NCBI GenBank assembly: GCA_032718475.1
Contig: JAUCBJ010001100.1
Span: 15,607 to 79,606, forward strand
Length of the DNA stretch: 64,000 nucleotides
Direction of reading: 5' to 3'
DNA from: Nemertoderma westbladi
Taxonomy: Eukaryota; Animalia; Xenacoelomorpha
The notes below the pieces were generated by a model that saw only the letters and a program-made list of their open reading frames with translations, had not been told where the DNA came from and ran no database searches. Shown in pieces: positions 35,304 to 64,000 of the stretch. The position numbers and the translations under genes are program-made. How positions within the stretch are numbered: the first letter of the stretch is position 1; each line of letters starts with the position of its first letter.

Positions 35304-35829
35304 CACCCATGACATTTGCTAGATCATCCGCATCTTCAAGGCCAGTGTCCTTTAAGATGCGTCTCAAGAAAGTCATGGGCTGTCCACCATGCTTATTCAG
35401 TCCATGAGGCTGCCAAAGTATAAGTTTATGCACTGGCTGGTCCTCACGGTGAAAGCAATGTCCTGCAAAGCGGAGGCGATTTTGTTCTAGTGTCAAGCTT
35501 GGGGGAACCAATGAGACACCTCCAATGTTATATAGTGTCTGGTTGGAGATGTGTGCATTGTACTTGACACAATGTACCCGGCGTAGCATTCTTGTAAATG
35601 TGCCATCCAGAGATTTGGTGTCCTCAGCAGTTAGAGCCCAACATGGACTCTCATAGAGAGGTACTGGAACTACTGCTGCTCTAAATAATCGGACCTTAAG
35701 TTTCCGATTAATTCTCGGTGACTTCCAAATCCTGCAAAGCATATTCAAGGCTGCCCAATGCTTTCCCTTACGTATTCGACGGTCCTCATCTGACTTCCGG
35801 ATCCATGATCCCAGGTAACAGAAGTCGTC

Positions 35830-40983: not shown

Positions 40984-41152
40984 AACTAATGAACAAATCG
41001 CACCTTTATATAGCAAATTTGTGCTGCAATCAATCGAGAAAATTCTCGATTGTTCTATAGGTTCTAACATGTTTTTAAAGATAGCTATTGGTCCAGCTAA
41101 TATATAACTTGCACGACATTGGTTACAATCAAATAACTACAGTCTCATTGGT
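40984..41152 (-). promoter_or_regulatory. Pol II promoter in the LTR: three CCAAT boxes, TATATAAA and an Inr-like TTAGTT (5' LTR copy at ~57558-57726)
   Basis: TATA at 41005-41012 on the minus strand; CCAAT near 41090, 41120 and 41150; AATAAA at 40893-40898. Confidence 0.6.
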
Positions 41153-41219
41153 TAATCTAGGTACAAACAAATGCAATTTAATTTGTAGCGGTTAATTTAA
41201 ATGAGTTGAAATTCTGCAC

Positions 41220-41306
41220 AAAAAATAATTCGCACTTACTAGGATTCGAACTCAATACCTACTACATATATAATTTCCAACGCTCTACCAACTGAGCTAC
41301 TGAACC
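41220..41306 (-). ncRNA. tRNA-like Pol III cassette in LTR U3
   Basis: A-box/D-arm TAGCTCAGTTGGTAGAGC, B-box GTTCGAATCC and a T6 terminator. The acceptor and anticodon stems do not pair. Confidence 0.65.
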
Positions 41307-42394
41307 ACTTGAATAATAGGCGTACAAATAGAAATAGCAATACAAATGAGGACTCAATGCAATCTTTTACAAAGTTAATTCGAATAAAATAAAATTTTGA
41401 AAATCCACGGCATTTAGGGAATATAATTCTATACCGCTCCATGAAAACAGGATATTATCGTGCATAAAATATACGGTTTTCACCAATAATCAATCAAACT
41501 ATAGAATACTTAGGGCGTACTTACATATTTACAAATTAAATTTCAAACAATACTTCCTTTCTACATAATGATTCGATACAAAATAATTACAAATTCAAAC
41601 TTTACGTAGTTAAGGCTTTACTAAGTAAGTACAATATAAATCTAAATTAAATTCACCAATATAAATCTATTGCATCTCAATATTGCATAAATTCAAACAA
41701 TTACAAATACAAATAAATGAAATCATAAGAAAGGCTCGCGAGTCTTCCATCTACTATTGCATCTCAAATATTGCATAAATTCAAATAATTACAAATACTT
41801 TCGTGCCTAAATGTAGATTGCATAAGTTCGGAATAATTACAAATATGAGTCTTTCTAAGCACAAAACTTTCTAACTATAAAACTTTCTAAATACAAAATA
41901 TAACACTTTACAAATGAAACTATAAGAAAGGCCCACGAGTCTTCCATCTACTCTTACTTTCTATTTCACTGTAAATACAAATACTGCTTATAAGATATAA
42001 ATTGCATAATATTCGGAACAATATAAATTGCATAAGTTCGGAATAATATAAATTGCATAAGTTCGGAATAATATAAATTGCATAAGTTCGGAATAATCAC
42101 AAATATAAAATATAAATCTTGCAAAATATAAATTCTTACTAAATATAAGTCTTACTAAATATAGATATAAACTGCATAAGTTTAGAATAATATAAACTCC
42201 TTTGCATCTCAAATATGAAACATAAATCTTTCAAATATAAGTTCCTTCTAAATATAAACTTTCTAAATTTCATAAATTCGGAACAATACAAATTGCTTAA
42301 GTTCGGAATAAACACGAATATAAATATAAATTCAAATAAATCAGAAAATCATAAGAAAGGCTCACGAGTCTTCCATCCACCCTTGCCCTCCCTT

Positions 42395-44448
42395 TTATCG
42401 CTTAGTTGATCGAGCCCTGCCGCGTCCTCGAAAACTGCGCACAGGTGACTTTGCTCGCGATATGGGACTTGTGGGGCGAGTCTCTGGTTTCGTTTGGACG
42501 TTGAGAGACGGTGCGACTATTTCCTCGCAAATTCGTCTATTTGGCATCCCAAAACCTCGACCGATTCCTCGTGACCGATCAGTTGTCACTACAGTTGGTA
42601 GAACGTCTGGGAACGCGCGAGAAACGGACGATGCAGACCCAAGAGTAGCTTGCGCCCCCTTTTGATCAGCTGGTGTGTGTCCCGATCCTCCTATTGGTTC
42701 TCTAGGAAGCGATACCGTATCCCCGAGTTATTCGAATGGTCGGCTCGACTCCCTTGCGTTCTTCTATATTAATAGACTTCTTTAACTGTTGGCCCACTTT
42801 CTGGACCCGTATGATCCTACCCTGTCCGTCCTCCCGAGGGTGACGTGCAGACGGCGCAACCGGAGTGGCTGGTATATTTGTCGCCTCTAGGACCTCCTCT
42901 TCCTCGAATACGCTCGCTCGTATACGTTTATGGTAAAATGCGGCTCGGTACGCCCATGCGACGGTTAACCAAGCTCCTTTATTCCACTTTTCGGTTCGGA
43001 AACGATCGAATTCACCATACGTGATGGGATTAACGACTTTCTGAAAATTCCACGTGTTTTTGTTATCCGGGTGAATCTGTAGTAGATACTCGCGCACTAC
43101 TCGGAATCCACTGTCGTGGGGCAAAATATCGACTACCTCGATAAGTTCGTCATATTGGGGCATAGCGGAGATATATCCTTCCGACATCATCGTTTGGGGA
43201 TTTACCGCCCAAAATCCAAGATGCGCTCTCATCGGAAACCGTCTTCTTTGTGCCGATACATGTTCGTCGGCTAAATCTTCCCACTCATCAAATAATTTTC
43301 TCACGAGTTTTACAGATTCGTGTTCATAGGGTATGTCTCTTAGTTGGCATTCAGATGCTCGATGTCCCTTTATATTGCAATAAGTACATTGAGCCATAAA
43401 TCTCCAGCAAGTATAAAAGGTATGAGACCCTTGATCTCCACACCATCCACAGATTAGCTGAGTCGTAGTAATGTGCTTTCCACTGAACTTGGTCATATGA
43501 TGTCCAGCGACGCCACATTTACCACACATCGTATTGGCAGGGTACCACACTCGTTCATATATAAGATCTCCAATCGGTCGAGCGCTTCCTCCCACACTAT
43601 AATTGTAGTCATCTGGATCTATGGGTTGGTAGGTTTCTGAAGGTTGTATACAAACTATAGCATCTGTTGCTTCAAGTTGTCGAATCTCCGTCTGAGATTT
43701 CTTCGGGAGGTTCCTTTCTATCTCAAGAAGTTCCTCTAAAGGATCGTCAGTGATCGTAGTAGTTACTTCGAAATCATCACCAAGGTGACCGATAGGCGCG
43801 CGCGTCTGCCGTGATTCATCCGTAATCTCCACGATACGTTCTCCTTCATAGGGTAACAATGTAAACATAGATGGTCTTTCGATAAGAGATCCCGCATTGA
43901 TAATAAAGTTTATAAACTGAAAATGCTTCCTTGGTTTCTCTATCGTCCCCTCGAGTTCGTCTGTAAAGATGCATTCCATCAAATTCATCTCGTACCGCAG
44001 GCATAGGTTCGTGCGCCTTCAGGTATTGCATGGTATGATACAAACGACTAATTTCAGTATCGGGGTCTTCGCTAATATCTCCTGTATCACACAAAGCGTC
44101 GTACGGGTAAAGTTCATTGAAGGTTTTGCGCAAACTTTCGATTCTTTCATTTAATGCGTTTTGCCTCCTCTTTAATACATTCGAGTCATATTTCGTTCTC
44201 GCGAGTTTCGCTGTACTTTCTGATAATTCTTTTATACCAAATATAGTGTAATCCTTAGCTCCAAATCGTTCGAATGGCGCTGCTGCTTCCTCTTGGATAT
44301 CATATCCCCATCTCGGCTCTCCTTGTATCCCCTTCTCCATAATTAGATGTGTAGTTACATAATCATTACTACTAGAGGGAATACAACAGAGTTTGTAGTT
44401 AGTTGTGAGGAGACGTGAGAGTTTTCGTCTGCCCTTTTGGCTCGACAA
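42395..44448 (-). CDS. Extra ORF downstream of pol, split into 44448-43846, 43988-42702 and ~42727-42395; zinc-knuckle protein with an RG-rich basic tail
   Basis: Motifs CGKCGVAGH, CGWCGDQGSHTFYTC and CTYCNIKGHRASEC; same strand as pol. Joining the pieces into one protein is inferred. Confidence 0.7.
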
Positions 44449-45023
44449 CGCTCTAACCTCCTACCCATAGCCTAAGATCTAGGGTTTCTTTAATGACACG
44501 CTGCTTCTTATCTAAAATTTTTTGCCGAAATAAAAACGAATTTGGGCTAAACTGGCTGTGAGTCTAAAATACTCACTTTTTGATCCCAAACTATTATCAG
44601 AAAATAAGCAATCAAGAATTAGTAATAAATATAGGGAAGTCTATTTTGACGTAACTTATTGAAACAAGACCGTGTAAAATTTAATTAAAATTTTAAGAAA
44701 GGCTCGCAAGTCTTCCTCTCTTGTTTCTCTAATTTTAAGTTCCACCCGACTGTACCCTGAAATCTATTCACTGGAGAAAATTTTTTTTTTATTTTTTTTT
44801 TTTTTTAAATTTTTCAAATCCAAATGGATTGTCTAAAATTTCGAAAATGTCTCAATATTGTGAGTTCCAAGTAGAATTCCATTTCTTATACCTACAAATC
44901 CCGCTCCTATGTGACACATAAGGGTACTACTACCCTCAATGTTCACATATAAAGACAATGGAATTCTACCGCTGTCCTTACTACGGTGTACAGGTACGTG
45001 GAAATCTATTTGTAAACTCCTAA

Positions 45024-45905
45024 TTATTTACTAATATTTGTTGGAGATTTGTAGTCTCCAGACTCGTTACGAGTCTCTTCTAAAAGTACGAGACGTTGAG
45101 TCGGTCTGTCTACTGTACGACCGTCAATTGTCCGTACCGTCACAGTTCTTGTCACTCCATCCATAGATGGATGTGTGGCTAAAATTACACCTGTTATCCA
45201 GAAGCGTCTTTTTAGATTCACTTCTGCTAACAGCACGTGATCTCCCGGCTTTAATGCGCGGGTGTTATTGTACCATGTTGTTCTGGCAGAAATAGAGGGC
45301 AAATAATGGTTTTGCCATATTTCCCAGAATTTGTTAGCTAGTAGTTGCGTGATTTTCCACGCTTTTCTACCATAGCTATCGCTTTCTATTGGAATAGAAA
45401 TAGGCGTCAAAGTGGTCGGTGCCTGCATTAGCAGGTGTGCCGGTGTCAAAGCAAACTGAGATTGTTTGTCATCGGGTACTAATACTATTGGTCTAGTATT
45501 TAGTATTGCCTCGATTTCAACAAACAGTGTTGTCAATTGGTCGTCTGTCAATATGTGGTTTACTGGAATGACCTTTGCCATTGCCGTTTTGATAGATCTA
45601 ATCAATCTCTCCCAGACTCCGCCTCTCCATGGACTATCTGGAGGATTAAACTTCCAAACAATCTTGTGAGGTTGTAGTTCGTTCGAGATTTGATCATGAT
45701 CTAATTTCTTAAAGGCTCTAGCAATCTCATTTCGAGCACCAACAAAGTTTGTCCCTTGGTCTGAGTACAAGCACTTCACTAGTCCGCGTCTAGCGATAAA
45801 TCGCCGCAATGCTAGTATAAACGCGTTGGTGGAAAGATCCATCACACGTTCAATATGAACTGCCCTACTGGACATACATGTGAAAATCAGTCCCCAGTAG
45901 TATAC
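45024..45905 (-). CDS. pol: Integrase catalytic core and BEL-type C-terminal domain
   Basis: Motifs FTCMSSRAVHIE, YSDQGTNF, GGVWERLIRSIK, EAILNTRP, LTPAHLL and FWEIW..YL. Confidence 0.95.
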   Translation of the reverse strand, partial: VYYWGLIFTCMSSRAVHIERVMDLSTNAFILALRRFIARRGLVKCLYSDQGTNFVGARNEIARAFKKLDHDQISNELQPHKIVWKFNPPDSPWRGGVWERLIRSIKTAMAKVIPVNHILTDDQLTTLFVEIEAILNTRPIVLVPDDKQSQFALTPAHLLMQAPTTLTPISIPIESDSYGRKAWKITQLLANKFWEIWQNHYLPSISARTTWYNNTRALKPGDHVLLAEVNLKRRFWITGVILATHPSMDGVTRTVTVRTIDGRTVDRPTQRLVLLEETRNESGDYKSPTNISK

Positions 45906-46765
45906 GTCCACGTTTCGTATGTATGGGACCAAAGCAATCAATTCCAGTCTCTGTAAAAGGTGGTCTGAATGCTTGAAGTCGTGCTTGTGGAAGTTCACTC
46001 ATTTCTTGGGTACCTATTCTAGAATGTACCTTCTTACAAATAATACACGTACGTGTCACTGAACTTAACGCTTTACTGGGTCTAATTAATACAAATCTTG
46101 TACGTAAGTAGGAAAGACAGTGGTGTCTTCCAGCGTGTTTCAGATGTAAATGTGCGTCCAGTATCATTGCACGTTGTAGTTCGTGATGTTGTGGTATTAT
46201 TATAGGGTATCTAAAGTTTGTGTTAAAGTCAATGTTTTGAAGCCGAGATTTATGACAAATTAAGCCATTATAAATTATCGGACTCCAACTCAGTATTGGT
46301 GACGACTTGATTGGTTGACCTTGATTTATGGATGTGAATTCGCGCGCGAAATATCGCAGTTGGTAATGGCGAATTAATTTAATTTCACACCTGTCAATCT
46401 CAGCCAATGTAAGTCGACGTGTAAAGTCACGTTTGCCTTTAACGTATTGTACAAAACGTACAATCCACGCTAATTTTCGGCAAGCGTTCGTCCAAGAATC
46501 TGTTAGGTTTACAATACGGTCGACGTAAGTATTTGTGACGTCATCAGGTAAGTCAATGGAGATTTTGGAAGGTTTTGATTTACTAGAAGGGCCCACGGGT
46601 CCGCCGGTAAGTATTCCCTTGTTGACTGTTGATCCGTCCGGGTCTACAAGTAATTTGTCCTTCTTCGTCTTCTTACCATGGTTGTCAGTACTTTGTAAGT
46701 CGATCGTTAATGGTGGTTTGAACTCTATGGGGGTTTCGGTAAACTTATTTTTCTGCCGACATTAA
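45865..46765 (-). CDS. pol: Integrase N-terminal HHCC zinc-binding region, frameshifted on both sides
   Basis: Motifs HLHLKHAG...CIICK, MSELPQARL and PFTETGIDCFGP. Confidence 0.92.
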
Positions 46766-49700
46766 TCCCAGGTCTCACCATAGGTTGCAAGTTCGGTATG
46801 TCTCTTGAGCGCAAAGTAACACCTGTATTTACATTAGCGTAGGTACTACACACATCTGTAATACATGAGGTTTCACCGTGCTTATGGTTGCTCAAGTGTG
46901 TCAAAATTGGTAGTTTGTCAATACAAGGCCGCTCCAATAGAGAAACTGCGGCTTTACTATCTGTCAATATGTTACTAATGTTCGGTTGAACATTTTGTGA
47001 CATGTCTGGTAAAATATTTCGCGGAACATCCGGCGAAATATCTAGTGACGTGTCTGGCAAAACGTCTGGTTGACCGTCTAGTAACGTATCTGGCGATACG
47101 TCTGGTAACGTATCTGGTTGTTTGTCAATAGAAGGCCGCTCCAATAGAGAAACTGCGGCTTTACTATTTGTCAGTATGTCACTAGTGTCTGGTAGAACAT
47201 TTTGTGACATGTCTGGCAAAATGTCTGGTTGACCGTCTGGTAACGTATCTGGCGATACGTCTGGTAACGTATCTGGTTGTTTGTCAATAGAAGGCCGCTC
47301 CAATAGAGAAACTGCGGCTTTACTATTTGTCAGTATGTCACTAGTGTCTGGTAGAACATTTTGTGACATGTCTGGCAAAATGTCTGGTTGACCGTCTGGT
47401 AACGTATCTGGCGATACGTCTGGTAACGTATCTGGTTGTTTGTCAATAGAAGGCCGCTCCAATAGAGAAACTGCGGCTTTACTATTTGTCAGTATGTCAC
47501 TAGTGTCTGGTAGAACATTTTGTGACATGTCTGGCAAAATGTCTGGTTGACCGTCTGGTAACGTGTCTGTTTGACCGTCTGGCGATATGTCTGGTGTAGA
47601 AAGGCTCGCAAGTCTTCCTCTCTTGACCTTTGAAGTTATCGCTTTCCATTTCGCCTTCGGTTTTTTCTTGAGTTTAGCCGCCGTCGTCCTTTTCTTTGCC
47701 TTCCCCTTTTTTGGTTTCTTGATTTCGGCGTCCTTAGGGATGGTGTTAGACTTGTTGTCGTATAACGGTGGCCAATCTTGCGTCGATTTCTGCAAGAATT
47801 GGGGTCCGTGTTGCCAAAATTCTTTGTTCTCCGGTTTACAGAATTCCTCAGGCATCATTCCTTGCGACGCAATATCGGCTGGGTTTTGTGGTCCGGGACA
47901 ATGTCGCCAATCTTCTTTTATTGAAAGGTCTAGAATTTCTGCGCGACGGTTAGCTACGAATGTCTTGAATTCAAGTGTGTCGTTGTTTATGTAAAATAAA
48001 ACCAACGTCGCGTCAGTCCAATAAAATATCTGTAAACTTGACTGTAGTTCTGTCTGTATAAGGTTCACGATGGTGGTTGACAGGGTTGCGGCTTGTAGCT
48101 CAGCTCGTGGTGTCGTCATATACTTAGTAGGCATTGTTTTTGCCTTAGAAGTAATGAGCGAAACATCGAATTCTTCTGAGTCTACTTGTCTGCGCAAGTA
48201 GGCTGCCACACCAAAACCGTTGTCACTAGCGTCGGAAAAACAGTGTAATTCCAAGCTGTCAGGAAATGTTGTTTGTAATGGAAAGTAGACTCTGGGTATG
48301 GAATAATCCTCTAGTGAAGATAATTCTGCCTCCCAGGTCTTCCATAAGTCCACTTGGTCTGATGAGATCGGCTCGTCCCATGTTAGTCCATCCTTCCAAA
48401 TACTGCGCATATAAATGCGGGCTTGCAGTATTATTGGACTGATGAATCCTAATGGATCGAACAATCGGCTCAATTTTGACAAGCATGATCTCTTTGTCAG
48501 TGTGTTTTCTTGACTGTCCAGTCTCACCTTTACTCGAAAGTTGTCCGTGTTTGGGTCCCAAAAGAGCCCCAACACCTTGGTCGTCGGTAGTGGTTCGAAC
48601 TCTAGGTCTATGTCACCACCTCCACGCTCAGTCGTTCCGAATGAGTCTACTAATTCGGCACTGTTTGAGGCGAATTTGGTGAGGTTAAAACCTCCGCCCG
48701 CTAAGCAGTCCCGTAATTGATGTGCTACTGTTGTAGCACGTTCTACTGTGTCGCAACTCTGTAAACCGTCGTCGACGTAAAAGTCACGTTCCACAATCCT
48801 AATTATCTCAGGGTCATACAAATGTTTCTGATCCCTAGCAGCTTGTTTTAGGGCATACATTGTACAATTTGGGCTGTCTCTGGCACCGAAAACGCGAACT
48901 TGCATTTGGTAAGTCGCCGGTGGTAGACTTAAGTCTCCTTCCGGATACCAGAGGAACCTCAAACTGTCTCTGTCTTGCTCTAACGCTCTCACTTGGTGAA
49001 ACATGGCTTCAACGTCACAAGTAAAAGCTACTTGACGCTGACGGAAGCACATAATCACCCCCATAAGATAATTATTCATGTTTGGTCCATCCATCAACTC
49101 GCTATTGAGGGACATTCCCTCAAACAGAGCCGCACAGTCATTGACTACTCGTACTTTGTCTGGTTTGTCGGGGTGTCTCACATAGTGATGTGGCAAGTAG
49201 TATGTCTGGTTAGTCACTATCTCTGGGTTAGTCATTCGGATAGCGTATCCCTTGGTCAAATACGTCTCCATCTGAGTGTTGTACTGCAGATGGGCTTTCT
49301 CGTCCTTTAATAGACGTTGTCGTATTGAGTGTAGACGTCTTAAAGCTAGTGGATAGTTGTTTATGAGTTTAGGACTTTGGCTACGCCATAACATCCCTAC
49401 CTCATAATGTCCATCTTTTGTCTGGCGGATAGTATCTTCCATGATCTTCAAAGATTGTTTCTCCTGTTCCGACATACATGGTTCGTAGCTACCAGGTTCA
49501 GCTGTATCTTGTTCTAACCACCTGATAGTCTTCTCCGTTAATTCTTTGTCCAGTGCGGCTTGTTCCACTTGCTGATTTTTCAACGCTTCATCATCGATAT
49601 CGACGGGTATTGTTGAGGTTATTGGGGTAGGTAGACTCGCAAGCCTTCCGGCGTTATCATCTGTCGTCGATGGAATCTCTAGATGACTCGTCTTCTCCCC

Positions 49701-52350
49701 AAGTTCTAAACTCACCTGGTGGATCAGCTGCTCCTTGTGACTTATCATGCTAGTTACACGTCTGTCATGTTTTGTATGTAAGGTAGTATGGTCCACGTCG
49801 TGTGAAAAGGAATGAATTGAATTTGTAGTTAATAAACTACATGTACTTTGTACATCGTCTTCCTCGTCACTTATGTCCAGTGTGCGCACAGGCGCTCGAG
49901 TATACCACCCTATCGGCGTTCTACAGGCGTATGCGTTTCCCGCTACGACTGCCGATGGTCTGGTTTCCCACACTTGATGTAGGTTGAATTGGTCTGTCCC
50001 GATCAGCATTGCTACCGATCTATAATTGACAGGATATTCAGGTACACCAAGGTGTCTGAAATACTTACGGTCCTCCAAGGATTGGTCTGGGACAGGACCT
50101 AGTAGGTTACTAAAGTCTTTGGTGGCCGCAAAAGTCAAATCCTTGAAGGGTAACAAAGACCTCTCCTCTTCGCTGTGTTGCGATTTTGGAAGAAGAGTGT
50201 CTAAGTCCAACTTAACTCGTGTCACTGGTATTGCACGTTGTCCGTGCATACTACTCACGGTGTAACTGACGCGCTTACCTTGTCTGAGATCCGTCACTAC
50301 GTCAGCTATCTGTTCATCCACGTAGCTGTGAGATGAGGCTGAATCCAGGATAGCGTAGATTCTCTTGCTCCCCTTTGTGCCAGTAATCTTAATCGGAATT
50401 ACACTGAATCCCTTTAGTTGGTCAGTCGTCAGAAGCGCGATCGATGGTTGTTCGTCTCCATCAGAATATACGTCGTCGTCTTCTGACTCTTTGTCCGACG
50501 ATCCGGATTGTTCTGAGAAGCAATCCTTTATATGTGTCACAAAGGTTGGAGTCGTTTTCGATTCTCGATTTTTGTAGGCCGCTTTACATCTCGCTGCTGC
50601 TTCCGGGTGTTCCCTGGCGAAGCGTTTTGTCGGTGTGTGGCTGTCTGTGTGGAGCAGACCGTCGTGGTTGCGTCCACAGGATGGACAAGTGTCGGTATTT
50701 GGGCAATCCTTGCGAACGTGTCCGTGTCGCGTACACCGCCAACAAGAGTCCAATGGCCGTATCTGCAGCCGTCGTTCTTCCGAGTTTAACTCGCGAAACT
50801 GTCGACAACCTCTCAACTTGTGACCGATATACCGCTTGCCTATATGCTCGCAGTATTGGCAGCCGCTGAAGTCGGTACTGAGTTGCTGTCTAGTCTGCTT
50901 TGTCCCAATGGGCGCAGATACCCTACTACCGTCCGAGAATTGTCGTGATTCCGTCGGTGTGGCGTAAGTGGCCGTCTTAGTGGATGTTGTCTGGGGTTTT
51001 TGTCGGTTTGAGGATGGCAAGGTGATTCCTTCTGCCACGATGTGCTGGTCAGTGTAGTTGGATCGAGTTTCTACCACTGCCTCCCTGGATATCAAAAGGT
51101 ACACATCCTCCAGTTTTAAGAATCCACCCCGCTCTTCCCGCTGATATTCGATCTTCCTCCACTCCCGACGAAGTCGATGGTGGAGTCGTCCTATGATCTT
51201 TAATAGGACTGTAGGGGTATTCCCGTAGTCAAGTTGTCCAATGGATCTCAAAGTAGTGATAGCGTTCTTTATCTCGTCAGCCAGTTTTAATAAGTCGACG
51301 GGTTTAGTGATAGCCCCTCCCTTACAGAGTTCCTCTATCACTGACCTGGCCATGCTGACTGTACCTCCGTAGATTGAAGTTAAACGATCGTACGCTAGTT
51401 CGAAGGCGTCCGGTACACCAACGAAGGTCTCCGCCAAACGTTTAGGTTCTCCCGACAACGTTTGAAGCAGGTAATTAAACTTCTCCCGTGATGTAAAGGC
51501 GCACACGGCGATCTGAGATTCGATATAGTCTACGAAAGTGTGCCAGTGTTTTGAGCTACCGGAAAACTTCGGTGGTTGTTGTACCGGCAATCCTTGTCTG
51601 GCTGCGAATTTCGCTATCTCCTCGGCAACGTTCAGAGTTTCGCGTCCTTGGTTGGTAATCTGGTTGATATCCCTTCTTGGCGCTTTTCCCTGATACGAAG
51701 TATGTTTTGAAGGTACCGGTCTTTGTGGTTCCTTCGGGTGTCTATTATGTTCGAATTCGGAATTTCTCGAACTGTCGGTGTGAACTTCCTCCAAGCGTTC
51801 CTCGATCTGAGCCAACTTGATTACAACTGGTCGCAGGATGTCGGCGAACTGTTGTGTACTGATTGCGTCCGTTGGTTGTAACGCCTTCTGTGTTGGTGTA
51901 TTCTGTGGAGGATTGTCTACAAAGGAGTTGTCTGAACGCTCGCGTTTATATTCATCGGCCGCCCCTGTTCTAAATACCTCGCGTTTCGGGTAATCCGATT
52001 CGCTCGAAGTACTACTATCATCTGGATATGGTGGTCGACGTGTTCGCGTCCGTTGCGTCGTACGAATTCTAACGTTTCGTTTTGGAACATCGTCCGCTGA
52101 TCTCCGTTGTTCGGTAGGCTCACAAGTCTTCCTCGAAGTCGTAGATTGCGATGTAAATTGGTTGAACGGTCGCGTATCCACTGGTCTCCGTTGTTCGGTA
52201 GGCTCACAAGTCTTCCTCGAAGTCGTAGATTGCGATGTAAATTGGTTGAACGGTCGCGTATCCACTGGTCTCCGTTGTTCGGTAGGCTCACAAGTCTTCC
52301 TCGAAGTCGTAGATTGCGATGTAAACTGAACCGGTGGGCGAATGACAGCA
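46725..52350 (-). CDS. gag-pol: Gag (capsid region, three BEL-type Cys/His motifs), aspartic protease, RT and RNase H polyprotein
   Basis: Gag PKFSG...W..F with CQYC..H..C, CWRC....H....C and CPSC...H..LLH; protease AILDSAS; RT YYLPHH, DVEAMFHQV and FYVDD; RNase H LHCFSDAS, TPRAEL and NPADIASQG. The true start is uncertain. Confidence 0.97.
46915..47595 (-). repeat. In-frame 159-bp (53-aa) tandem repeat, about 4 copies, between RNase H and integrase
   Basis: Anchor GAAGGCCGCT at 47131, 47290 and 47449; built from 12-bp xPDx subrepeats. Confidence 0.95.
52100..52326 (-). repeat. In-frame 84-bp (28-aa) tandem repeat, about 2.7 copies, in gag
   Basis: FTSQSTTSRKTCEPTEQRR occurs three times. 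Confidence 0.95.
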
Positions 52351-53583
52351 TTTGAATCAACTGGCCTTGTCACTTGTGTCCTTCTGGGCTCCTCCCCGAA
52401 GGCGCACCCACGAGGCGGACACCTTTCCACCACCCCTGGGGCCAGTCCGACAGATGTTATTATCAGACCGGGCCGGAGGGTGGCCTGATGCTTCCCGGGT
52501 TCTGTTTTCGGTCCCCCGATCACACCAGCACAGCTCGTCGAACGTGTAGCCAGATGGGCGGCTACTGTCAACTTACTGTGGCCTGACTGTACATTGAGCC
52601 AACTCAAAGTATAACAAAGAGTCAACCGGCAGGTGGACCAGTCGATAGCGATCGAGCACCAAGGTCGCCCTTGGTCCTAACCGACGGTCTTGTCCCATGT
52701 GGGCTTGCGCTACCCAACATGGAATTTTGACACGTTTTCACCTGCCTCGCCGGCAATATTGAGGGGAAGTAAGTTCCACAAACAATATTGACTAGCTCGA
52801 AAGCTAGGAACAAGTAACCACTTACCCGTCCTGTACACGTGTACTCAACAGATGTTCACGAAATCAAGTACACTACGGTAAACACAAAATCTGACACATA
52901 CCATGCACACACAGAGGACATAATCGGGTAAAGACAAAATCGGGGTCAAAATCGGGAAAGACAAAATCAGAGGGGACAAATTGTATCGACTGAAACTCGA
53001 AAAGAGTCGAGAGTACCTTATTTTGCCGTCAGGGCAAAATAACTTTGTGTGCACAAAGTATGCTGGGGTGCAGTAAAGTATGGTCCTACTAATACCAGCG
53101 GCGTCTTGTCCAACTGGCAAGGGTTCCCATACCCACTCGCAGTGGCCACACATACAATCACGTGTACTCACATACTCACAGCAACAGAAAGCTCAAGACC
53201 CGACGGTTTTTCCAATGCCACCAAAGACCAATCAGCTGAACATGGAGACAATAACATATTATAGTATCAAAAAAACGGAACAGCTGACGGTCAATGGAAC
53301 CATCCAAGCCCCAAGCAAACTGCCACTGATCGCCCACATACAAAACATAGTTCACGCCACATGAACCACAAATCACGCCATGCCACCATCCCTACTGTGT
53401 ACAGGACTGGCAGTACGGCAACAGGCCGACTAGACGGTACCATGGCACCATGGCAATTCATGGTTCGTTAGACACGAGGGCCTTCAGTGACTCCCTAGCA
53501 CTATATGACAATTTAACGTGCCCCCAGACCCTCACGAGTCCGCCGCCGCCTGTTAGACCCACCCCTATAGAGACCTCACCTCT

Positions 53584-55277
53584 TTAGGTAGGTCGAAACG
53601 TCATTGGGTAAGCGTAGTGTGTAACGGGTTTAGGTGTCGACGGTGGACTCACCTGTTTAGTCGTCAGTAGTGCAGGTCCAGTCAACAAACTACTACGATC
53701 TGTAATCGGCGGGTTACTTACCTTGACTTTCGGAATAGGCGACGACGTTGCTCTTGGCGATGTAAACTTGTCCGGAATAACAAACCTGTGTTCCGTCGCA
53801 CCATGGATAGGAGAAATATTACTACTACCAGCAATCGAAACAGGTTCCTTTGTCGTAACCGGTGCAAACATAGGAGTTACTTTAGGAAATCTTTGACATA
53901 AGTCTTTAACTAATTGTCGTTCTCGTCCAGGTGCTCCTATCGAACCTTCCTTCATTCGTTCCTGAATTTGGCGGTGCCTTACCTCTATCTGGTCTAAATC
54001 ATGTCCGTCTCGAGATCTCATCGATCGATCGCGGGCTTGTAGATCCAGATCTTCCTTGGCGTTGGCTAATTCTCTCGCCTTCTTCTCTAGTTCGAAACGA
54101 AGTTTAACTTCTTTCTCGCGTTGTTCCGTTTGTTGTTGTTGCGCCTCGAACTCTGCTTGTCGTATAGCTGACTGAGCCTTTATTTGCCGTGTTTTCATTT
54201 CGGTTCTCGCTTCTGAAGCTAACCTTTGTCGCTCTAACTCGGCCGCTGCTGTTCATTGCGCTAACTCGGCCGCTGCCGCTTGTTGTGCAATGTCCAACTC
54301 TAACCTTTCCACTTCGGCTGCTTCCAACTCAGCTTGTTCTTGCAGATGAGAAATTCTCGCAACATTGGCGACGCGTAGTTTCTCTTCCTCTACAGCTGCT
54401 TGTAACGTCAATAACTGAGTTTGTTCCTCGATTTCTCGCTGTAGAGCTGCTGTTGTCGAGCAATTTCTGACGTAGCCATACTCACCTCGCCAATTTCGCT
54501 GCGAATACTCACCAGTGATTGATTCAGTGTTCCCGGTGCCAGTTCGATTTGTGCGAGCGAAGTTTCCCTCGTAGCCTCCGGCACGGTTTCCCAATCTCCG
54601 ACGTCCTCGCCGCACATGCGTAAGTGATCTGTCAGGTGTTTCAATTGTCCATCTAGCCTATACAGTTCCTGTTCTTCCTCGGGTTGTAATAATTCGTCCG
54701 AAACTGACTCACCTAACAACTGGTCCGCTTGTTCCTGTTGTACCTGCCTAATCGTCGACTTAAACTGAATCAGTTTCTCTCTAGCGATCATTAGTTTCTC
54801 GAGGATTCTAAGTTGAGTGTCCATATCCTGTCTCTGTCTAGCTAGATCTTGTAGACCAATTAGGTTATCTACGGACTTATATACTTTACTCTGTACTCTC
54901 ACCTGTAGAGTGTAGAACTCGAACCGAGACATCGGAGCGGTTAACTCGTCTAATATGCGTTGGCCTTCTCCAATACTCCTGGTTATATGCGCCATGTAAC
55001 CGCCGACGCTTCTAACCACACTCTCCTGGCTTCCTACTGAACTTACCATGTCCGTTTCCCTATATCTAGGTTGCGGAACAGTTAGAAAGTCCTCGGTCCT
55101 GCCGTCGCCTCGTACTACGGCATCCAGTACTCCCTTTGGATGTACTGGTGACGCACACGGTGTAGGTTCGGTAGGCTCGCGAGTCTTCCCCTGTTGTTCT
55201 TCCGCTGCTGACTTATCCGCGTCACATGAGTCATAGTCGGTAGGTGTATTCTTCGTATAGTCTTGTTTGTCACTCAT
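53584..55277 (-). pseudogene. gag: Coiled-coil Gag N-terminal region, broken by a frameshift (~54460) and an in-frame TGA (54253-54255)
   Basis: ATG at 55277; Q/E/R/A-rich helical sequence. ORFs 54615-54253 and 54198-53584 share a frame and are separated only by one stop codon. Confidence 0.75.
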
Positions 55278-55359
55278 TTCGGTAGTTGTAAGTCAAGTAA
55301 AGTGAGTGTCAAAGTATCAAACTTACCGTTTTTTATCTAAACGGTACTAATTACAGTCA

Positions 55360-55490: not shown

Positions 55491-56097
55491 TAAATCGGAA
55501 TTTTATAACAAATAAATCGGATAACGATATGCGTTATCAAAAGGTAAATAAAATACAATAATACGGACTAATTCAGCAATGAACAAAGAAATCATACGGA
55601 ATGCATAAATACTTGAGACAGTGGAACCCACAATAATTTTAACTAATACGGTAATGCCTAACTTATTTATGCAACTTTTCGAACTCACCCACTCCAATAA
55701 TTCTCCAGAAAAACAGATTCCCAGATACAAACCGGACGTGAACCTTTCCGTTTTCAGCGTTGCGGACGAAGCGCGATTTTCCCAACCAAAGTTGTTGAGT
55801 TATCTATCTCCCAAACTTGCTAAACACGGTCTTGCTCCCGTTACAGTCTAGAAATGAGTTCTGAATCCTGAAAAACAAAAGAGTTAGGTTTTACTTTACG
55901 AAAAATTTTGTACCGGTACAATATGGTATTTAAACCCTTTTAAACACCGGTATTCAATTCCAAAAAATATTTTACACGCGGTTCAAATCAAATTTTATTT
56001 CAAAAAATTAGCACTTAGCTAATCAAATATAAATTTTTACCTCAAAATACAAAATTTTTAAATAACTTTAGTCCTACCGAACCGTAGTTCAGTAAAA

Positions 56098-56108
56098 CAC
56101 ATTCCTAC
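56098..56108 (-). promoter_or_regulatory. Candidate self-priming primer binding site GTAGGAATGTG
   Basis: Abuts the 5' LTR and is the exact reverse complement of LTR 57138-57148. No TGG tRNA-type PBS is present. Confidence 0.65.
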
Positions 56109-57870
56109 TATTCGGAAGAGACAGTAACAATACCTGCAATATCCTACTGTAAAGTTTGTGAATCAAATCATAAATCCGACCTTCTCACCAAAACAGTAAA
56201 CTCTAAGTAAGCGAATATATTGCAGTATCGATCTCTTATAACCGGTGAGGCAGAAAACAGTCTACGAGCAGACAAACTTCGATAAAACAAAATCCCGCGC
56301 AGCGAATCCTAAAATCAGGCTGACTCACTGACGGACTAAGAGGCTCGTATACTTTGCCGCGGTGTGATTTATATGGTTGGGCGAAAGGGACGCTAGCTAG
56401 GTACAGAGGCAGAGATTTGGAGATGTCTAACTAGCGGGCAAAGCACAGTACGGACAAAGTTAATTTTATATATTTTGAGGTGTAAATAATTTCTAACGCG
56501 CGTGTGTTAATTCTGAACGGTCAAAGCAGTTTTGCTCCTTCACATATATAATTACTGGGTACGGTGTGCATTTTACAAATATTCTAATTTTGTAACTTGT
56601 AGGTCCAATACTCACGAATGATAAGGTTCCTTCCCCTCTTGCGTATTTCCAGGACTCAAATTCAGGCATAAGGTTAATGCTACGCCCAGAATTCGGCAAT
56701 TTTAATTTACCAGGCCCCTAATACTAAGAAGAAATGTGTTAGTTTACTACTGTAGGCGTACAGTTACAAATAGCTATCCTGGCGTCCTATCTAGAATTTT
56801 AGTCACCTAGGTAGGCTGGGTAACTTCCTATCAAGACGTTGGCGGGGACACGGTAGATGTTAGTATATCCCTAATAGCCTCGATTTATTTGCGCCTAGTT
56901 GTAAACTGCCCTACCGCCTGAACGGTACAATCCTAACTCAGGTGAAACACAGCAACCCTCCTAGCCTACAAGTTCTAATGCAATGGACACCGTTGCACTA
57001 CAAATAGTCACAGACGCACCTGTACTTAGCAAGAGTTAGGCGTACAGTTTGCTGCACCCTACCAATGTGTATGCTTTGTACCGGTGTGACCACGTCCTAT
57101 CTGCGTACTAGTATCTCTGCCTGCTCTCTCCCCCCCCGTAGGAATGTGAAGGTCTACTGTGGTTTTTTCCTGAATCAAGACAGTACAGTCCCTAAGATGT
57201 AATTTTAGGCTTACAGCGTGTCACTACTTCTACCTTTTGATCTTTGGTCTTACGCTTAGGTAGCAAGGCGTCGAACGCTGTCTAACCTTTCAGGCGATGG
57301 GCGAATAACTGAGGTGGTATTGCGGGTTGTCTCCTGTCTACATTCCCGTGATGTTCCCGTTCATTGCTGCGGCCCGATCTCTAGCCGGCCATCCTGTTCT
57401 TAAGTTTGTTCACCGTAGTGAATCATGGTAAAACAGATAGAAAAGGCTGGTAGCGGTATTTCTGAATTTATTGCAGATAATAATACAAATATAATCTGAA
57501 AACTAATGACAGAATAAACAAATATCAGATAACTCAGAGAGATAGATTATGGTATATAACTAATGAACAAATCGCACCTTTATATAGCAAATTTGTGCTG
57601 CAATCAATCGAGAAAATTCTCGATTGTTCTATAGGTTCTAACATGTTTTTAAAGATAGCTATTGGTCCAGCTAATATATAACTTGCACGACATTGGTTAC
57701 AATCAAATAACTACAGTCTCATTGGTTAATCTAGGTACAAACAAATGCAATTTAATCTGTAGCGGTTAATTTAAATGAGTTGAAATTCTGCACAAAAAAT
57801 AATTCGCACTTACTAGGATTCGAACTCACCTACTACATATATAATTTCCAACGCTCTACCAACTGAGCTA

Positions 57871-59860
57871 GGGCTGGGGCAAAACAGACTGTAAACAAGG
57901 GGGGAAAAGAATTACGCGGAAAAATGACCAGAGAGGGAGGAAAAACGCAGAGAGAAAGGAAAAACGCAATAATGTATTTTTCTACCATACATATTTTTAT
58001 TAGAATTATTATACTTTGTAAATATTGAAACATCAATATTAATATTATACAGTATGAGAACATGTAAAATACATATAGAGCATTGTACATTATACAGTAA
58101 CTTATACAAATTTAACTTATTCAACAAATAATATATTATCCTTTACGTCTAACTATCAACGTAGGCTATTCGACCCCTAAAGGTCTGTTTACACGTGGAA
58201 ACTTTTAGATCAACTTTCTCGGCAAACTAGCAACTTTTTTTGGAGCAACTTAATTTAATCGCTGGTTACACGTGGCAACTTTACCAGCAACTTGGCCGGC
58301 AACTTTTAGAGCAACTTGGCGAGTTTAACTGTAAAATAGTGGGTCATTTTATCTACTAGCTAGTTTTTGATAATTACATCTGATTATCCCGCTTTAATTC
58401 CCCAACGCAAATTCCTTCAAGTTGCCGTAAAAGTTGAGCAAATTTTACAGCATTTTTTTTCAGCAACTTACGTGTTTACACGGAGCAACTTGATCGGCAA
58501 CCTGGTTTGCTCTAAAAGTTGCCGAGAAAGTTGCTCTAAAAGTTGCCACGCGTAAACAGGCCTTAAGGCAAGGATATGCGCATTGCTCATCTCAAAGATA
58601 CATTAGTTTTCCAATAATTTCCAAACACTAATAATTATTTTTCAGGGCCAACGATATGGAACTCTGATTCCTTTGCTGACGTAAAACATAAAAAATCTAA
58701 AATATAGTACCCTTTTCGAAATAGGTCACCTTCTAAAATATTAAATTAAAGTACACTGTAAACAATCAATAAAACATAGATCTTACCAATTTTCCATAAC
58801 CTTTTCTATCCAATATTTTATGTATTTCCTATCTCGACTCATTTAGTTTAGTTTTATATACCTGGATCAGCATCGGAACTCCAGTGAAACAATTGATTGC
58901 GCTGGAGATTAACTTAGGATAATTAATTATTTCCCTATCAACAACAACAGTAACAATCTCACACCTCACAATTCACATAATAGTAATATCCCCCCCCCCT
59001 TTTTTTTTGCAAGCACTGCACACCTACCTACCTACCTACCTACACTACATACCTACCTGCCCGGCACTCCCAGACAATACATTGGGCTATAATACTAGCC
59101 ACACCATTGTCCAAAGTATTATTGTAACTTAACTTTTAATATTGCAATTATACAATATACTGTATATCTTACTCTATATGTGCAATGTGAGTATCGGATT
59201 ACCAAATAAACAATAAATTTTAAACAATTGTCTATTTTAGTCTAAAATTCGCAACTGTTCGGTGGTCCACCCACACGATCAACACCATGTAGTACAAAAA
59301 CCTAGGCCTACGACTACATGCTCTAAAACCCCCAAAAATGACCCCCCCCCCCCCCCCCCCTCCGCTAAATGGCAGGTCTCCTTTGCTAATTGCCGTATAC
59401 AAACACGGTACTCGTGGATGCCTGGGAACTCATGACACATTATTGAAAGTTTATTATTTACTCATAAGTCTAGAAAACTAGATAATACATTTGTAATATG
59501 ATAATTTATTTGTCAATATAACACGATTAACTGATACTCGTTTAATTAAACGTAAACCTTTGATGAAATTAAAAAATTCCTTCCAAATCCTTGCCTGTAA
59601 TCAATAATTAATTAAAAGTTTAGTTGTTTTGTTGGGTTAACTTAGCAGCCTATCCCAGTACATGATTTCCCATCTCCTCAACCAGGGGAACTACTATATA
59701 GTTTAAACTATGTAAGCTATTTATAACAGCCAATAGAAAGCCGGGTTTTTCCTACCATCCACCTAAGCAAGCTACTCCCTTCCTCACCTCCACGCTACTC
59801 GCGACCTTAGCTCTAGCCTACTCTCAACCTTAGATTTACCACAGTCCTTAGGTATTCTGC
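57871..59860. mobile_element. Non-coding, TIR-less 1990-bp element, unit 1, inserted in the tRNA A-box (Dada-like)
   Basis: Flanked by CTGAGCTA at 57863-57870 and 59861-59868. The empty site is visible at 41292-41299. Confidence 0.85.
58181..58563. mobile_element. PIF/Harbinger-type MITE (383 bp) nested in unit 1
   Basis: TIRs AGGTCTGTTTACACG / CGCGTAAACAGGCCT, TAA TSD, and internal GCAACTT repeats in inverted halves. Confidence 0.88.
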
Positions 59861-59868
59861 CTGAGCTA

Positions 59869-61857
59869 GGGCTGGGGCAAAACAGACTGTAAACAAGGGG
59901 GGAAAAGAATTACGCGGAAAAATGACCAGAGAGGGAGGAAAAACGCAGAGAGAAAGGAAAAACGCAATAATGTATTTTTCTACCATACATATTTTTATTA
60001 GAATTATTATACTTTGTAAATATTGAAACATCAATATTAATATTATACAGTATGAGAACATGTAAAATACATATAGAGCATTGTACATTATACAGTAACT
60101 TATACAAATTTAACTTATTCAACAAATAATATATTATCCTTTACGTCTAACTATCAACGTAGGCTATTCGACCCCTAAAGGTCTGTTTACACGTGGAAAC
60201 TTTTAGATCAACTTTCTCGGCAAACTAGCAACTTTTTTTGGAGCAACTTAATTTAATCGCTGGTTACACGTGGCAACTTTACCAGCAACTTGGCCGGCAA
60301 CTTTTAGAGCAACTTGGCGAGTTTAACTGTAAAATAGTGGGTCATTTTATCTACTAGCTAGTTTTTGATAATTACATCTGATTATCCCGCTTTAATTCCC
60401 CAACGCAAATTCCTTCAAGTTGCCGTAAAAGTTGAGCAAATTTTACAGCATTTTTTTTCAGCAACTTACGTGTTTACACGGAGCAACTTGATCGGCAACC
60501 TGGTTTGCTCTAAAAGTTGCCGAGAAAGTTGCTCTAAAAGTTGCCACGCGTAAACAGGCCTTAAGGCAAGGATATGCGCATTGCTCATCTCAAAGATACA
60601 TTAGTTTTCCAATAATTTCCAAACACTAATAATTATTTTTCAGGGCCAACGATATGGAACTCTGATTCCTTTGCTGACGTAAAACATAAAAAATCTAAAA
60701 TATAGTACCCTTTTCGAAATAGGTCACCTTCTAAAATATTAAATTAAAGTACACTGTAAACAATCAATAAAACATAGATCTTACCAATTTTCCATAACCT
60801 TTTCTATCCAATATTTTATGTATTTCCTATCTCGACTCATTTAGTTTAGTTTTATATACCTGGATCAGCATCGGAACTCCAGTGAAACAATTGATTGCGC
60901 TGGAGATTAACTTAGGATAATTAATTATTTCCCTATCAACAACAACAGTAACAATCTCACACCTCACAATTCACATAATAGTAATATCCCCCCCCCCTTT
61001 TTTTTTGCAAGCACTGCACACCTACCTACCTACCTACCTACACTACATACCTACCTGCCCGGCACTCCCAGACAATACATTGGGCTATAATACTAGCCAC
61101 ACCATTGTCCAAAGTATTATTGTAACTTAACTTTTAATATTGCAATTATACAATATACTGTATATCTTACTCTATATGTGCAATGTGAGTATCGGATTAC
61201 CAAATAAACAATAAATTTTAAACAATTGTCTATTTTAGTCTAAAATTCGCAACTGTTCGGTGGTCCACCCACACGATCAACACCATGTAGTACAAAAACC
61301 TAGGCCTACGACTACATGCTCTAAAACCCCCAAAAATGACCCCCCCCCCCCCCCCCCTCCGCTAAATGGCAGGTCTCCTTTGCTAATTGCCGTATACAAA
61401 CACGGTACTCGTGGATGCCTGGGAACTCATGACACATTATTGAAAGTTTATTATTTACTCATAAGTCTAGAAAACTAGATAATACATTTGTAATATGATA
61501 ATTTATTTGTCAATATAACACGATTAACTGATACTCGTTTAATTAAACGTAAACCTTTGATGAAATTAAAAAATTCCTTCCAAATCCTTGCCTGTAATCA
61601 ATAATTAATTAAAAGTTTAGTTGTTTTGTTGGGTTAACTTAGCAGCCTATCCCAGTACATGATTTCCCATCTCCTCAACCAGGGGAACTACTATATAGTT
61701 TAAACTATGTAAGCTATTTATAACAGCCAATAGAAAGCCGGGTTTTTCCTACCATCCACCTAAGCAAGCTACTCCCTTCCTCACCTCCACGCTACTCGCG
61801 ACCTTAGCTCTAGCCTACTCTCAACCTTAGATTTACCACAGTCCTTAGGTATTCTGC
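59869..61857. mobile_element. Same element, unit 2 (1989 bp)
   Basis: Appears identical to unit 1 except for a poly-C length; followed by CTGAGCTA at 61858-61865. Confidence 0.85.
60179..60561. mobile_element. PIF/Harbinger-type MITE nested in unit 2
   Basis: Same sequence and TAA TSD as 58181-58563. Confidence 0.88.
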
Positions 61858-64000
61858 CTGAGCTACTGAACCACTTGAATAATAGGCGTACAAATAGAAA
61901 TAGCAATACAAATGAGGACTCAATGCAATCTTTTACAAAGTTAATTCGAATAAAATAAAATTTTGAAAATCCACGGCATTTAGGGAATATAATTCTATAA
62001 CATATGTATAGTGTTACAAAGGAGAAAGACCGTGAGTGCAATACAAAAGACCGCAACAACTTACATTTATGGAAAAAACCGTAAGTCAACTAACTGTTTT
62101 TTGTCATCGCATAGATAATAAGAAAACGCACATACGGTTTTACTGAAATTTGTGTCTTTTGACTTGCGGTTTTTTATCATTGCATATATAATAAGAAAAC
62201 GAATATACGGTTTTACTGAAATTTGTGTCTTGACTTGCGGTTTTTTACTATTTGCAGAAAAGGCGCGAAATTCAAAATTGAAATTTCACCAAGTGACTTG
62301 CGGTGTTTTATCATCATATGGCTCTATGGCTACGGAACAAGCTGCCGACTAGTGAATAGACATTGCACTTACGCCCTCGCGTCAAAATATCAGATAATTG
62401 TTGTTTCTTTATTTCACCTAGAGCATAATTTAATGGGATTTCAAATATGAAAATGGCTTGGCGAGATCTGTTTGTATGTATTTTCATAAATTACCTGAAG
62501 AAGCCCTGATGGGAGAAACCTTGTAATAACTGTTGTTATTAATTCCATTAGTCAGCTGAGGTCAACCCGCCCTACCATAGCTAAGAGTAAGAACCCGTTC
62601 ATAAGTGCCTTAAGCGAGATCAAAATTTAAAAAAGTCACTGTTAAGTCCAGCCACAGGATGACCAATTAATAGTCAAAGAGACTAGATTTTATCGAACAT
62701 AAAAATGACATTGGATATGAAATCACGGACCACGAAAACCACCATAATGAAAATTATAGCTCTGTGGTGTACTTCCTTCATGCCACACGGACGCATTATT
62801 AACCAACCAGACCACATACGGGCAGTTTGGTGTGGCAATGTTTAAACTTTAAAGGCAATTTTCTCGGAATGAAAGTTTTTCACTTGAACCACTACTCCTC
62901 TTTAACCGTTTTTTGTAATTTTCGCTTCATATGACAGGTAATTTAATTAATTTCGTCAAATTTTTTTTATTTCATAATATTTCCCCGTTCCCAAGTTTTT
63001 TTGTTTATGCAACCACATTGAGTTTTTTACAAATTTAAAACCGCAGGTGGGGTTGCCCCAATTTGTTGCCCCAATTTGTGCATTAAATTTATACAATGCA
63101 AAAACACCGCAACTGACAGACTTGCGTGTTTTGTTATTGTGACCTTTGTTTTTGCATTGTATCGAATGTATTTACATGCAGGTTGTACAATGCAAAAAAC
63201 ACCTAAGTACAAAAAATAACCCTGAAGTCAAAATATTAATGGAAAGTGCAAAAAATAATCCCGTAGAAAAATTTCCCACCCCCAATTGCGACGGGTTATA
63301 AAAAAATATTAATTCACGGACATTTTAAACCAACAATCTGAAGGAAAACAGTAATTTGCGTTTTACTCGAAATTACTTTTTGTCACTTGCGGTCTTTTTA
63401 CATTGCACGGCAGTGCTGTCTATTGCTTAAATATTTTGAAAGCAATGTTTTTATGGCAGATACACATACAGTATTTGCTAATTTTGTTTAACTGTCCTGT
63501 TGCAATTGTTTTTATAAATGCTCCCAGTGTGTGCAAGGTGGAAACACAAATTCATAACCAGGTGCTCAGATTCGTAGCCAAGCTACAATTAATATTCCAG
63601 ATTTGACAAGTCCGAAAATAACTCGAATGGAACCTTAAACTCTCAACTGTATATTTGCAGTGAGAGATAATATTGTCTTTAAGTTGGTTATAGAGATAGA
63701 TTCATCAGACTCAGGAACACAATGATAGTCATAATATGGGAAAGTGAAATCACTGTTAAAGTTGTGTTTCAAGAGCGTTGACTGCGACATCATCAGTTAT
63801 GCCAATTACCAGGGGATTCATCTTTGTGTTTTGAGTTGAGGGAATTGAACTCTACCAAACCCAATGTCGGATTTCATTGTAGATTCTGATATCACATCTA
63901 TCTCCAACTCCCGCAATCCTGGAGACATTAAGAGAAACCATCGTAATTGTTCGCGCTTTCAGACCTTTGGCAGTTTAACCCACCAAATTAAGATGTCTTC

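Follow-up and report, generated by a model that had tools for sequence, protein, structure and literature searches.

The window, that is, the whole stretch of 64,000 nucleotides analysed here, contains a minus-strand retrotransposon that spans about 18.5 kb without a secondary insert and, as judged by its proteins, is a member of the BEL/Pao superfamily. Its main features are as follows.

56109–61999, minus strand: 5′ LTR with TA…TA ends, interrupted at 61857–57871, i.e. after LTR base 142
39535–41433, minus strand: 3′ LTR of 1,899 bp; identity to the 5′ LTR 99.7% (1,765 bases aligned)
62000–62004, minus strand: target-site duplication TATGT, 5′ side
39530–39534, minus strand: target-site duplication TATGT, 3′ side
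41434–41445, minus strand: short purine-rich tract preceding the 3′ LTR, at the PPT position
54408–55292, minus strand: first open frame past the leader, with no Pfam match and not continued into the next frame
53584–54252, minus strand: second open frame, coiled-coil-like, with no Pfam match
46725–52676, minus strand: 1,983-aa open frame with DUF1759 Gag, protease (DSAS), RT (YVDD) and the Pao RNase H region (Peptidase_A17)
45024–46761, minus strand: integrase region (Integrase_H2C2, DUF5641) divided between two further frames, out of frame with the polyprotein in this copy
57871–61857, no strand assigned: two tandem non-coding units of about 2 kb, a secondary insertion in the 5′ LTR at TAGCTCAG

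Two LTRs, a PPT and a target duplication are present, as in other BEL/Pao elements. The insertion is young because the LTRs are nearly identical (1,760 of 1,765 aligned positions match, and so do all 142 bases of the 5′ LTR piece cut off by the insert). The LTR termini of this recently inserted copy are TA…TA (61999, 56109, 41433 and 39535) and not TG…CA; a TA 3′ end is also found in two relatives described below, L004 and L015. The domains follow the order PR-RT-RH-IN, with Peptidase_A17 detected at E 1.7e-42 and the motifs DSAS, YVDD and FSDAS found. RT and RNase H retain intact motifs, and the frame breaks of this copy lie in the Gag-side and integrase regions. The closest proteins are 41–43% identical over RT-RNase H, none exceeds 43%, and PF05380 is present in every homologue listed. 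Among the proteins with a name, most are from fish or marine invertebrates (corals, ribbon worms, echinoderms and molluscs), in agreement with the host range of the Sinbad-like subgroup in excerpts of PMC8220671. The chromovirus RT and integrase of Ty3/gypsy, which define the Tf1/sushi group, were not found in the element, which has BEL/Pao domains.

The polyprotein contains in-frame tandem repeats, one of 159 bp x 3.3 after RNase H (47045–47569) and one of 84 bp x 2.8 in Gag (52093–52325). Downstream of the integrase, overlapping open frames of 204 and 438 aa (42702–44460, minus strand) have no Pfam match; the 438-aa frame contains Cys/His knuckle-like motifs and lies in the env position, yet it is not env-like. 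The tandem units of the secondary insert are 99.95% identical, are flanked on each side by the 8-mer TAGCTCAG (57863–61865), and have no terminal inverted repeats that we could see. Dada transposons, according to excerpts of PMC3706591, are without terminal inverted repeats, occur in tandem and generate TAGCTC(AG) duplications at tRNA A boxes; by this analogy, the insert is likely to be a non-autonomous Dada. The insertion site is the A box of a tRNA-like stretch in U3, in which an A box and a B box are followed by a T run (57870–57800 and 41299–41225, minus strand). This stretch, which belongs to a coding element, was not called by ARAGORN or Rfam; it resembles the Pol III promoters of Helenus LTRs described in excerpts of PMC10886601. 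As a candidate primer it was rejected, its 12-nt pairing (two G-U, −16.2 kcal/mol) being with the region 56096–56085 and not with the LTR edge. Near the insertion of the retrotransposon lie a 23-bp satellite array of 21 kb (13–21390), a 61-bp array (37368–38955), a 1.64-kb tandem duplication (31226–34512) and a 526-bp inverted repeat (35304–36943).

The sequence that follows the 5′ LTR and its complement within the LTR are the subject of the analysis below.

56098–56108, minus strand: PBS position, 11 nt GTAGGAATGTG, directly after the last 5′ LTR base (56109); no TGG
57138–57148, minus strand: predicted self-primer CACATTCCTAC in the 5′ LTR (LTR position 860–870), a perfect complement of the PBS
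40564–40574, minus strand: the same 11-mer in the 3′ LTR
57153–57159, minus strand: CAGTAGA, a 7-nt extension of the duplex with one G-U, pairing with 56096–56090
56090–56096, minus strand: TTTACTG, the partner of this extension
57124–57137, minus strand: G8AGAGAG run past the predicted cut site, of varying length among copies

The strings quoted in the initial annotation were all found where it had placed them (56108–56098, 57148–57138, 40574–40564, the 7-nt extension and the G8AGAGAG run), and its description of a PBS without TGG, with a perfect complement in the LTR and a primer end at the LTR edge, was confirmed. No TGG occurs after the 5′ LTR until 146 nt downstream, and an 18-nt PBS for a tRNA 3′ end, as given in the ICTV profile, is absent. 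Without a TGG near the LTR edge, a tRNA 3′ end cannot serve as the primer. Self-priming of the Tf1 type is recognized by an LTR complement of at least 10 nt lying 0–5 nt from the LTR end. Here, the complement is 11 nt long with an offset of 0; when paired, the 3′ end of the predicted primer would fall exactly at the LTR edge. With the 57148–57138 site, the 18-nt PBS region forms a duplex of −20.1 kcal/mol; the next best site in the LTR gives −14.3 kcal/mol. A longer, splice-built primer was sought in this LTR and not found, the unspliced 11-mer being the best candidate.

The initial annotation had put the probability of a chance match at about 5e-4. This is close to our strict estimates: 3.7e-4 complements of the 11-mer are expected in the LTR from base composition and 3.8e-4 under a dinucleotide model, and 14 of 14,645 internal positions (approximately 1e-3) reach an 11-nt match. 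It nevertheless lies at the favourable end of the range, because a permissive search with five offsets and splicing allowed gave matches of 11 nt at 6 of 300 random internal positions, and a looser version at 2 of 60, a level of 2–5%. Taken alone, the pairing in this single element is suggestive but not conclusive.

Information on transcription was drawn from contigs of seven sequencing runs, none recorded as RNA, and such contigs cannot show starts, ends or strand. The relevant features are the following.

55868–57286, minus strand: GT-AG intron, 1,419 nt long, seen as joint 55866/57286 (cut +1) in a single contig (depth 250) of run X4
57578–57587, minus strand: TATA box, predicted start near 57560
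57467–57472, minus strand: AATAAA upstream of the primer, the use of which would break the cis model
56884–56889, minus strand: AATAAA downstream of the primer, predicted to be functional for genomic RNA

The X4 contig joins 57287 to 55867, the acceptor of the intron is strong, and the intron (57286–55868) takes out both the primer and the PBS. The joint is absent from the X1, X3 and X5 contigs. X4 is probably RNA because, besides the splice joint, it has an excess of T>C places (80, against 7–27 in the other runs) and a far lower depth in the internal part of the intron. One X4 contig at 56253–56702 carries many T>C on the plus strand, as A-to-I editing of sense U5 RNA would give. Since the joint is present, some RNA starts upstream of 57287, in agreement with the TATA box at 57586. 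The primer is therefore probably internal to the transcript, approximately 410 nt from its start, unlike that of Tf1. A further hexamer downstream of the primer, ATTAAA, is found at 56706.

RNA folding gave a different indication. Only RNA beginning at 57160 or 57148 gives the duplex, with a probability of about 1. With starts between 57180 and 57562 it costs 4–19 kcal/mol; at 57300 or 57562 its probability is zero and imposing it takes 11–18 kcal/mol, although long-range predictions of this kind are unreliable. The splice joint thus favours an upstream start with an internally cut primer, whereas folding favours a start near the primer; on the predictions, a second start, or pairing between two RNA molecules, would also be plausible. 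Substitutions at a frequency of at least 1% number six in 111 bases around the primer site. Among the 18 LTR-side pairing positions there is one such variant, at 57146, which accounts for 41–46% of the depth in X1–X3; it turns a C-G pair into a U-G pair unless its PBS partner, 56100, changes too, and weakens the duplex from −21.8 to −19.9 kcal/mol. The variant is compatible with pairing, but this is weak evidence, since half of all transitions would be so as well. A subfamily with a compensating LTR site, hinted at by one loose PBS end in three X1 contigs, was looked for and not found among the loose ends listed.

Relatives were fetched with an alignment of 21 RT-RNase H proteins, which yielded 79 loci from metagenome contigs (the best 80 of 560 being kept) and 32 from genome contigs, 111 in total; a search of IMG/VR returned none. 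The 32 loci from genome contigs (L080–L111) are BEL/Pao elements in assemblies filed as bacterial or archaeal, a filing that is likely to reflect contamination of those assemblies by host animals. A repeat pair surrounds the RT in 48 of the 111 loci and is missing from 63; in 22 the 3′ LTR is cut, and 26 have a defined 3′ LTR end. Four of the latter (L079, L083, L091 and L108) were dropped by eye as not being LTR pairs, which left 22, and the LTR boundaries of several relatives were set by eye. tRNA calls numbered 2 across 21 loci scanned and were uninformative.

Among the 19 relatives without a TGG-type PBS, 16 have a perfect 10–15-nt complement of their own LTR that begins 0–4 nt after the LTR end, and each of these complements is matched by 0–1 of 300 random positions. 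The three relatives with a TGG-type PBS (31–33% identity) have no self-complement, reaching 5–6 nt only. The count of 16/19 was obtained with a relaxed acceptor rule; a stricter rule gives 14/19 and misses L089 and L096. The three misses are near misses by eye: L062 has 12 nt with one G-U, L088 has 11 nt with one mismatch, and L090 has 8 nt in an incomplete LTR. The 16 are partly non-independent, in that L018 and L109 have the same LTR, L082 and L084 are sisters, and L013 and L026 share a PBS. The match starts with GT in the window element and with GT or AGT in 14 of the 16. The distance from the primer to the LTR end is 1,029 nt in the window element versus 44–203 nt in these relatives.

The complement is contiguous in only four of the 16 (L004, L065, L068 and L071). 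In the remaining 12, it exists only across a GT-AG junction with a GTAAGT, GTAAGC, GTGAGT or GTACGT donor and a pyrimidine-rich acceptor. DNA inversion cannot explain these 12 because the match is confined to the junctions of consensus GT-AG introns. In L071, the 5′ LTR (1–326) has a splice acceptor at the primer, and the 3′ LTR (6690–7103) carries the primer without the intron; this represents either intron loss within one contig or a chimeric contig.

In a swap control, own PBS/LTR pairs reached at least 10 nt in 17 of 23 cases, and foreign pairs did so in 10 of 506 (mean 6.0), eight of these being look-alike families. Before a homologous donor, L082 reads CAC and L084, its sister with 89% RT identity, reads TAA; the corresponding PBS triplets are GTG and TTA, so that the sisters show compensatory changes at two PBS letters. 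The pairing thus turned out to be conserved with different letters among related families, a check that the initial annotation had proposed, as seen in 16 of 19 relatives, the swap control and the L082/L084 pair. A blind search of eight loci with an unknown LTR end gave seven matches in six loci and none in the other two. Two of the six positive loci are copies of families already counted. Five of the seven matches lie 0–4 nt after ACA (background 7%), and a sixth lies 5 nt after it. An AATAAA or ATTAAA hexamer is located downstream of the primer in all 14 LTRs examined; the product of chances for this placement is 6.5e-8 over 12 non-redundant LTRs, and L004 and L043 are without the hexamer. 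A downstream hexamer fits a cut in cis because strong-stop DNA must still overlap the 3′ end of the RNA. In a quick RT-RNase H tree (62 rows, L109 left out), 18 self-complementary rows and three tRNA-type rows were split by a branch with an SH-aLRT of 99; three tRNA-type rows cannot root the trait. The window element falls on the self-complementary side, on a long branch (1.59) that makes its placement unsure.

The 16 of 19 relatives and the absence of TGG support the self-priming reading, and from them we infer priming itself: the window element probably primes minus-strand synthesis with its own LTR-encoded 11-mer. The proposal of a self-priming BEL lineage in the initial annotation is also supported, but the trait is not peculiar to the window element; it marks a wide BEL/Pao branch in which the primer is mostly splice-built. 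How the primer is released is a separate question, and we tentatively propose internal cutting in cis, a mode to which we give somewhat less than an even chance. Pol II would start near 57560. The unspliced RNA would keep the primer and the PBS and serve as the genome, and the RNA spliced at 57286–55868, having lost both, would be used for translation only. The PBS/LTR duplex would then form and be cut between 57138 and the G-run, probably by the RT/RNase H of the element itself, by analogy with Tf1. Strong-stop DNA would copy 56109–57137 and jump to the 3′ end, a jump for which polyadenylation has to occur past the primer, for example at the 3′ LTR equivalents of AATAAA at 56889 or ATTAAA at 56706. 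During plus-strand synthesis the PBS would be rewritten from the primer, so that a perfect Watson-Crick match and covariation between the two would arise automatically. In most relatives, the primer would be formed by splicing an intron out of the LTR, while the window family would have a ready-made one; loss of the LTR intron in some lines may have produced such ready-made primers, for example, in the window element and in the 3′ LTR of L071.

Two other modes of self-priming have to be weighed against internal cutting in cis. If the element followed Tf1 strictly, the genomic RNA would begin with the 11-mer, from a second start at 57148 or slightly upstream, and transcription from the TATA box would yield spliced mRNA only. 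The folding results, in which the duplex is stable only for starts at 57160 or 57148, argue for this arrangement, and what we take to be an Inr-like TCACATT overlaps the primer site. Tf2 of fission yeast alternates between starts that include the self-primer and starts that omit it (excerpts of PMC5341516), and the primer of L043 begins 31 nt after a TATA box. However, no TATA-like box was found within 60 nt upstream of 57148, the splice joint indicates RNA that starts upstream of 57287, and the primer of L071 lies approximately 120 nt after its TATA box; we consider a strict Tf1 mode unlikely, if realistic. It is rather improbable that the primer acts in trans, being cut from the partner RNA of a packaged dimer while the template stays whole. 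The AATAAA at 57472, which follows the TATA box at the usual distance for an R region, could then define R; the summed contig depth of X4, approximately sevenfold higher above 57536 than at 57278–57449, points weakly in the same direction, although DNA runs also dip (57450–57535). That all 14 relatives examined have their hexamer on the downstream side of the primer fits cutting in cis instead.

Explanations other than self-priming appear much less probable. The pairing could be a long-range helix with a structural or regulatory role, as a switch for packaging, splicing or translation, with priming by a protein or another RNA. In long leaders, each strand of the helix is predicted to have other pairing options, and the primer and the PBS lie inside one intron, as such a role would allow; yet in all passing cases the helix consists of Watson-Crick pairs only and stops 0–4 nt from the LTR edge, and the tRNA-type elements do not have it, so that we regard this as very improbable. 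Marginally less credible still is priming by a host RNA fragment, such as a tRNA cut in the anticodon loop, the LTR 11-mer being a chance or captured copy. Anticodon-loop primers are known in other LTR elements (excerpts of PMC10886601 and PMC6317226), BEL elements use tRNA-Arg (PMC8742986), and the last 7 nt of the primer would fit a generic anticodon-loop shape reading CCU (Arg). ARAGORN and Rfam found no tRNA in the 64-kb window. The many different PBSs of the relatives are each matched by their own LTR, often at a splice junction, and no host RNA is needed. Least probable of all is a chance match restricted to the window element. The permissive chance level of 2–5% and an LTR five times the typical length of the relatives' would make it easier to obtain; against it, the site is the best in the LTR by 6 kcal/mol, the offset is 0, the GT start is common to the relatives, and the element belongs to a branch with 16 of 19 positive. 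The points that count against self-priming in the window element itself are its long branch, the 1,029-nt primer distance, the upstream AATAAA at 57472 and the folding cost.

Self-priming with internal cutting can be extended to a broader proposal, for and against which we see the case as evenly balanced: a wide animal branch of BEL/Pao may have dropped tRNA priming and cut a primer from the middle of the RNA, with splicing by the host as the switch. Most members would build the primer at an exon-exon junction of the LTR, and the window family would keep the primer and the PBS in one 1.4-kb intron, such that a replicable genome, once spliced, would be left as an mRNA only. With a primer that is internal or built by splicing, the initiation of reverse transcription would be coupled directly to RNA processing. 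The proposal raises questions about the cutting enzyme, the stop of plus-strand copying after 11–15 nt, and the keeping or loss of LTR introns. It also offers a simple annotation rule for BEL elements with 'no PBS', and self-primed elements may be freed from control by host tRNA fragments.

BEL/Pao elements have been described as tRNA-primed; for self-priming, the known cases are gypsy elements of the Tf1/sushi type, with a single copia lineage put forward as a further candidate. If our reading is true, the self-primed BEL branch would represent a further origin of the trait, in animals. Cer7 of C. elegans, a BEL/Pao element, is said to encode its own primer-like sequence, which is reportedly a tRNA-like internal repeat and not an LTR 11-mer. 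Within the open-access papers that our literature search covered, no published self-priming in BEL/Pao was found. The terms primer, PBS and tRNA are absent from the main BEL/Pao survey (PMC3118150), as are PBS and tRNA from the Sinbad paper (PMC554778), and excerpts of PMC8220671, PMC4600332, PMC5443660, PMC5341516, PMC6934838, PMC10886601, PMC4558846 and PMC3286476 contain no mention of BEL/Pao self-priming.

Compared with the Belpaoviridae of the ICTV, the window element has the same Gag-PR-RT-RH-IN order, Peptidase_A17, DUF1759, DUF5641, YVDD and 5-bp duplication. In the ICTV profile (PMC8742986), the PBS is 18 nt long and fits tRNA-Arg or tRNA-Gly, the LTRs measure 0.2–1.2 kb and the genomes 4.2–10 kb, whereas the window element has no tRNA PBS, 1.9-kb LTRs with TA…TA ends and a length of about 18.5 kb. 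The missing tRNA PBS is a departure from the ICTV description but not from the family as defined by its proteins.

Reports of self-priming concern the Tf1/sushi and Tcn1 groups, and for TAR copia it is a prediction (excerpts of PMC6317226). The TAR lineage of Ty1/copia (Houba, Osr-1) resembles the window element in being predicted to self-prime outside the Tf1 group by the same rule, at least 10 nt and 0–5 nt after the LTR; these are, however, plant elements, and the excerpts of PMC6317226 mention no splice-built primer for them. Close parallels are also Tf1, Tf2 and Tj1 and the Tf1/sushi and Tcn1 groups of Ty3/gypsy, which have a self-complement of approximately 11 nt in the LTR RNA and a PBS without TGG (excerpts of PMC7175516, PMC4600332 and PMC5341516). 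RNase H cuts the Tf1 RNA between bases 11 and 12 (excerpts of PMC7175516). In Tf1, a member of another superfamily, the primer is the first 11 bases, whereas that of the window element probably lies approximately 410 nt inside the transcript and 1 kb from the PBS. Also unlike Tf1, the primer of the window element is located inside an intron, and the primer of most of its BEL relatives appears to be built by splicing.
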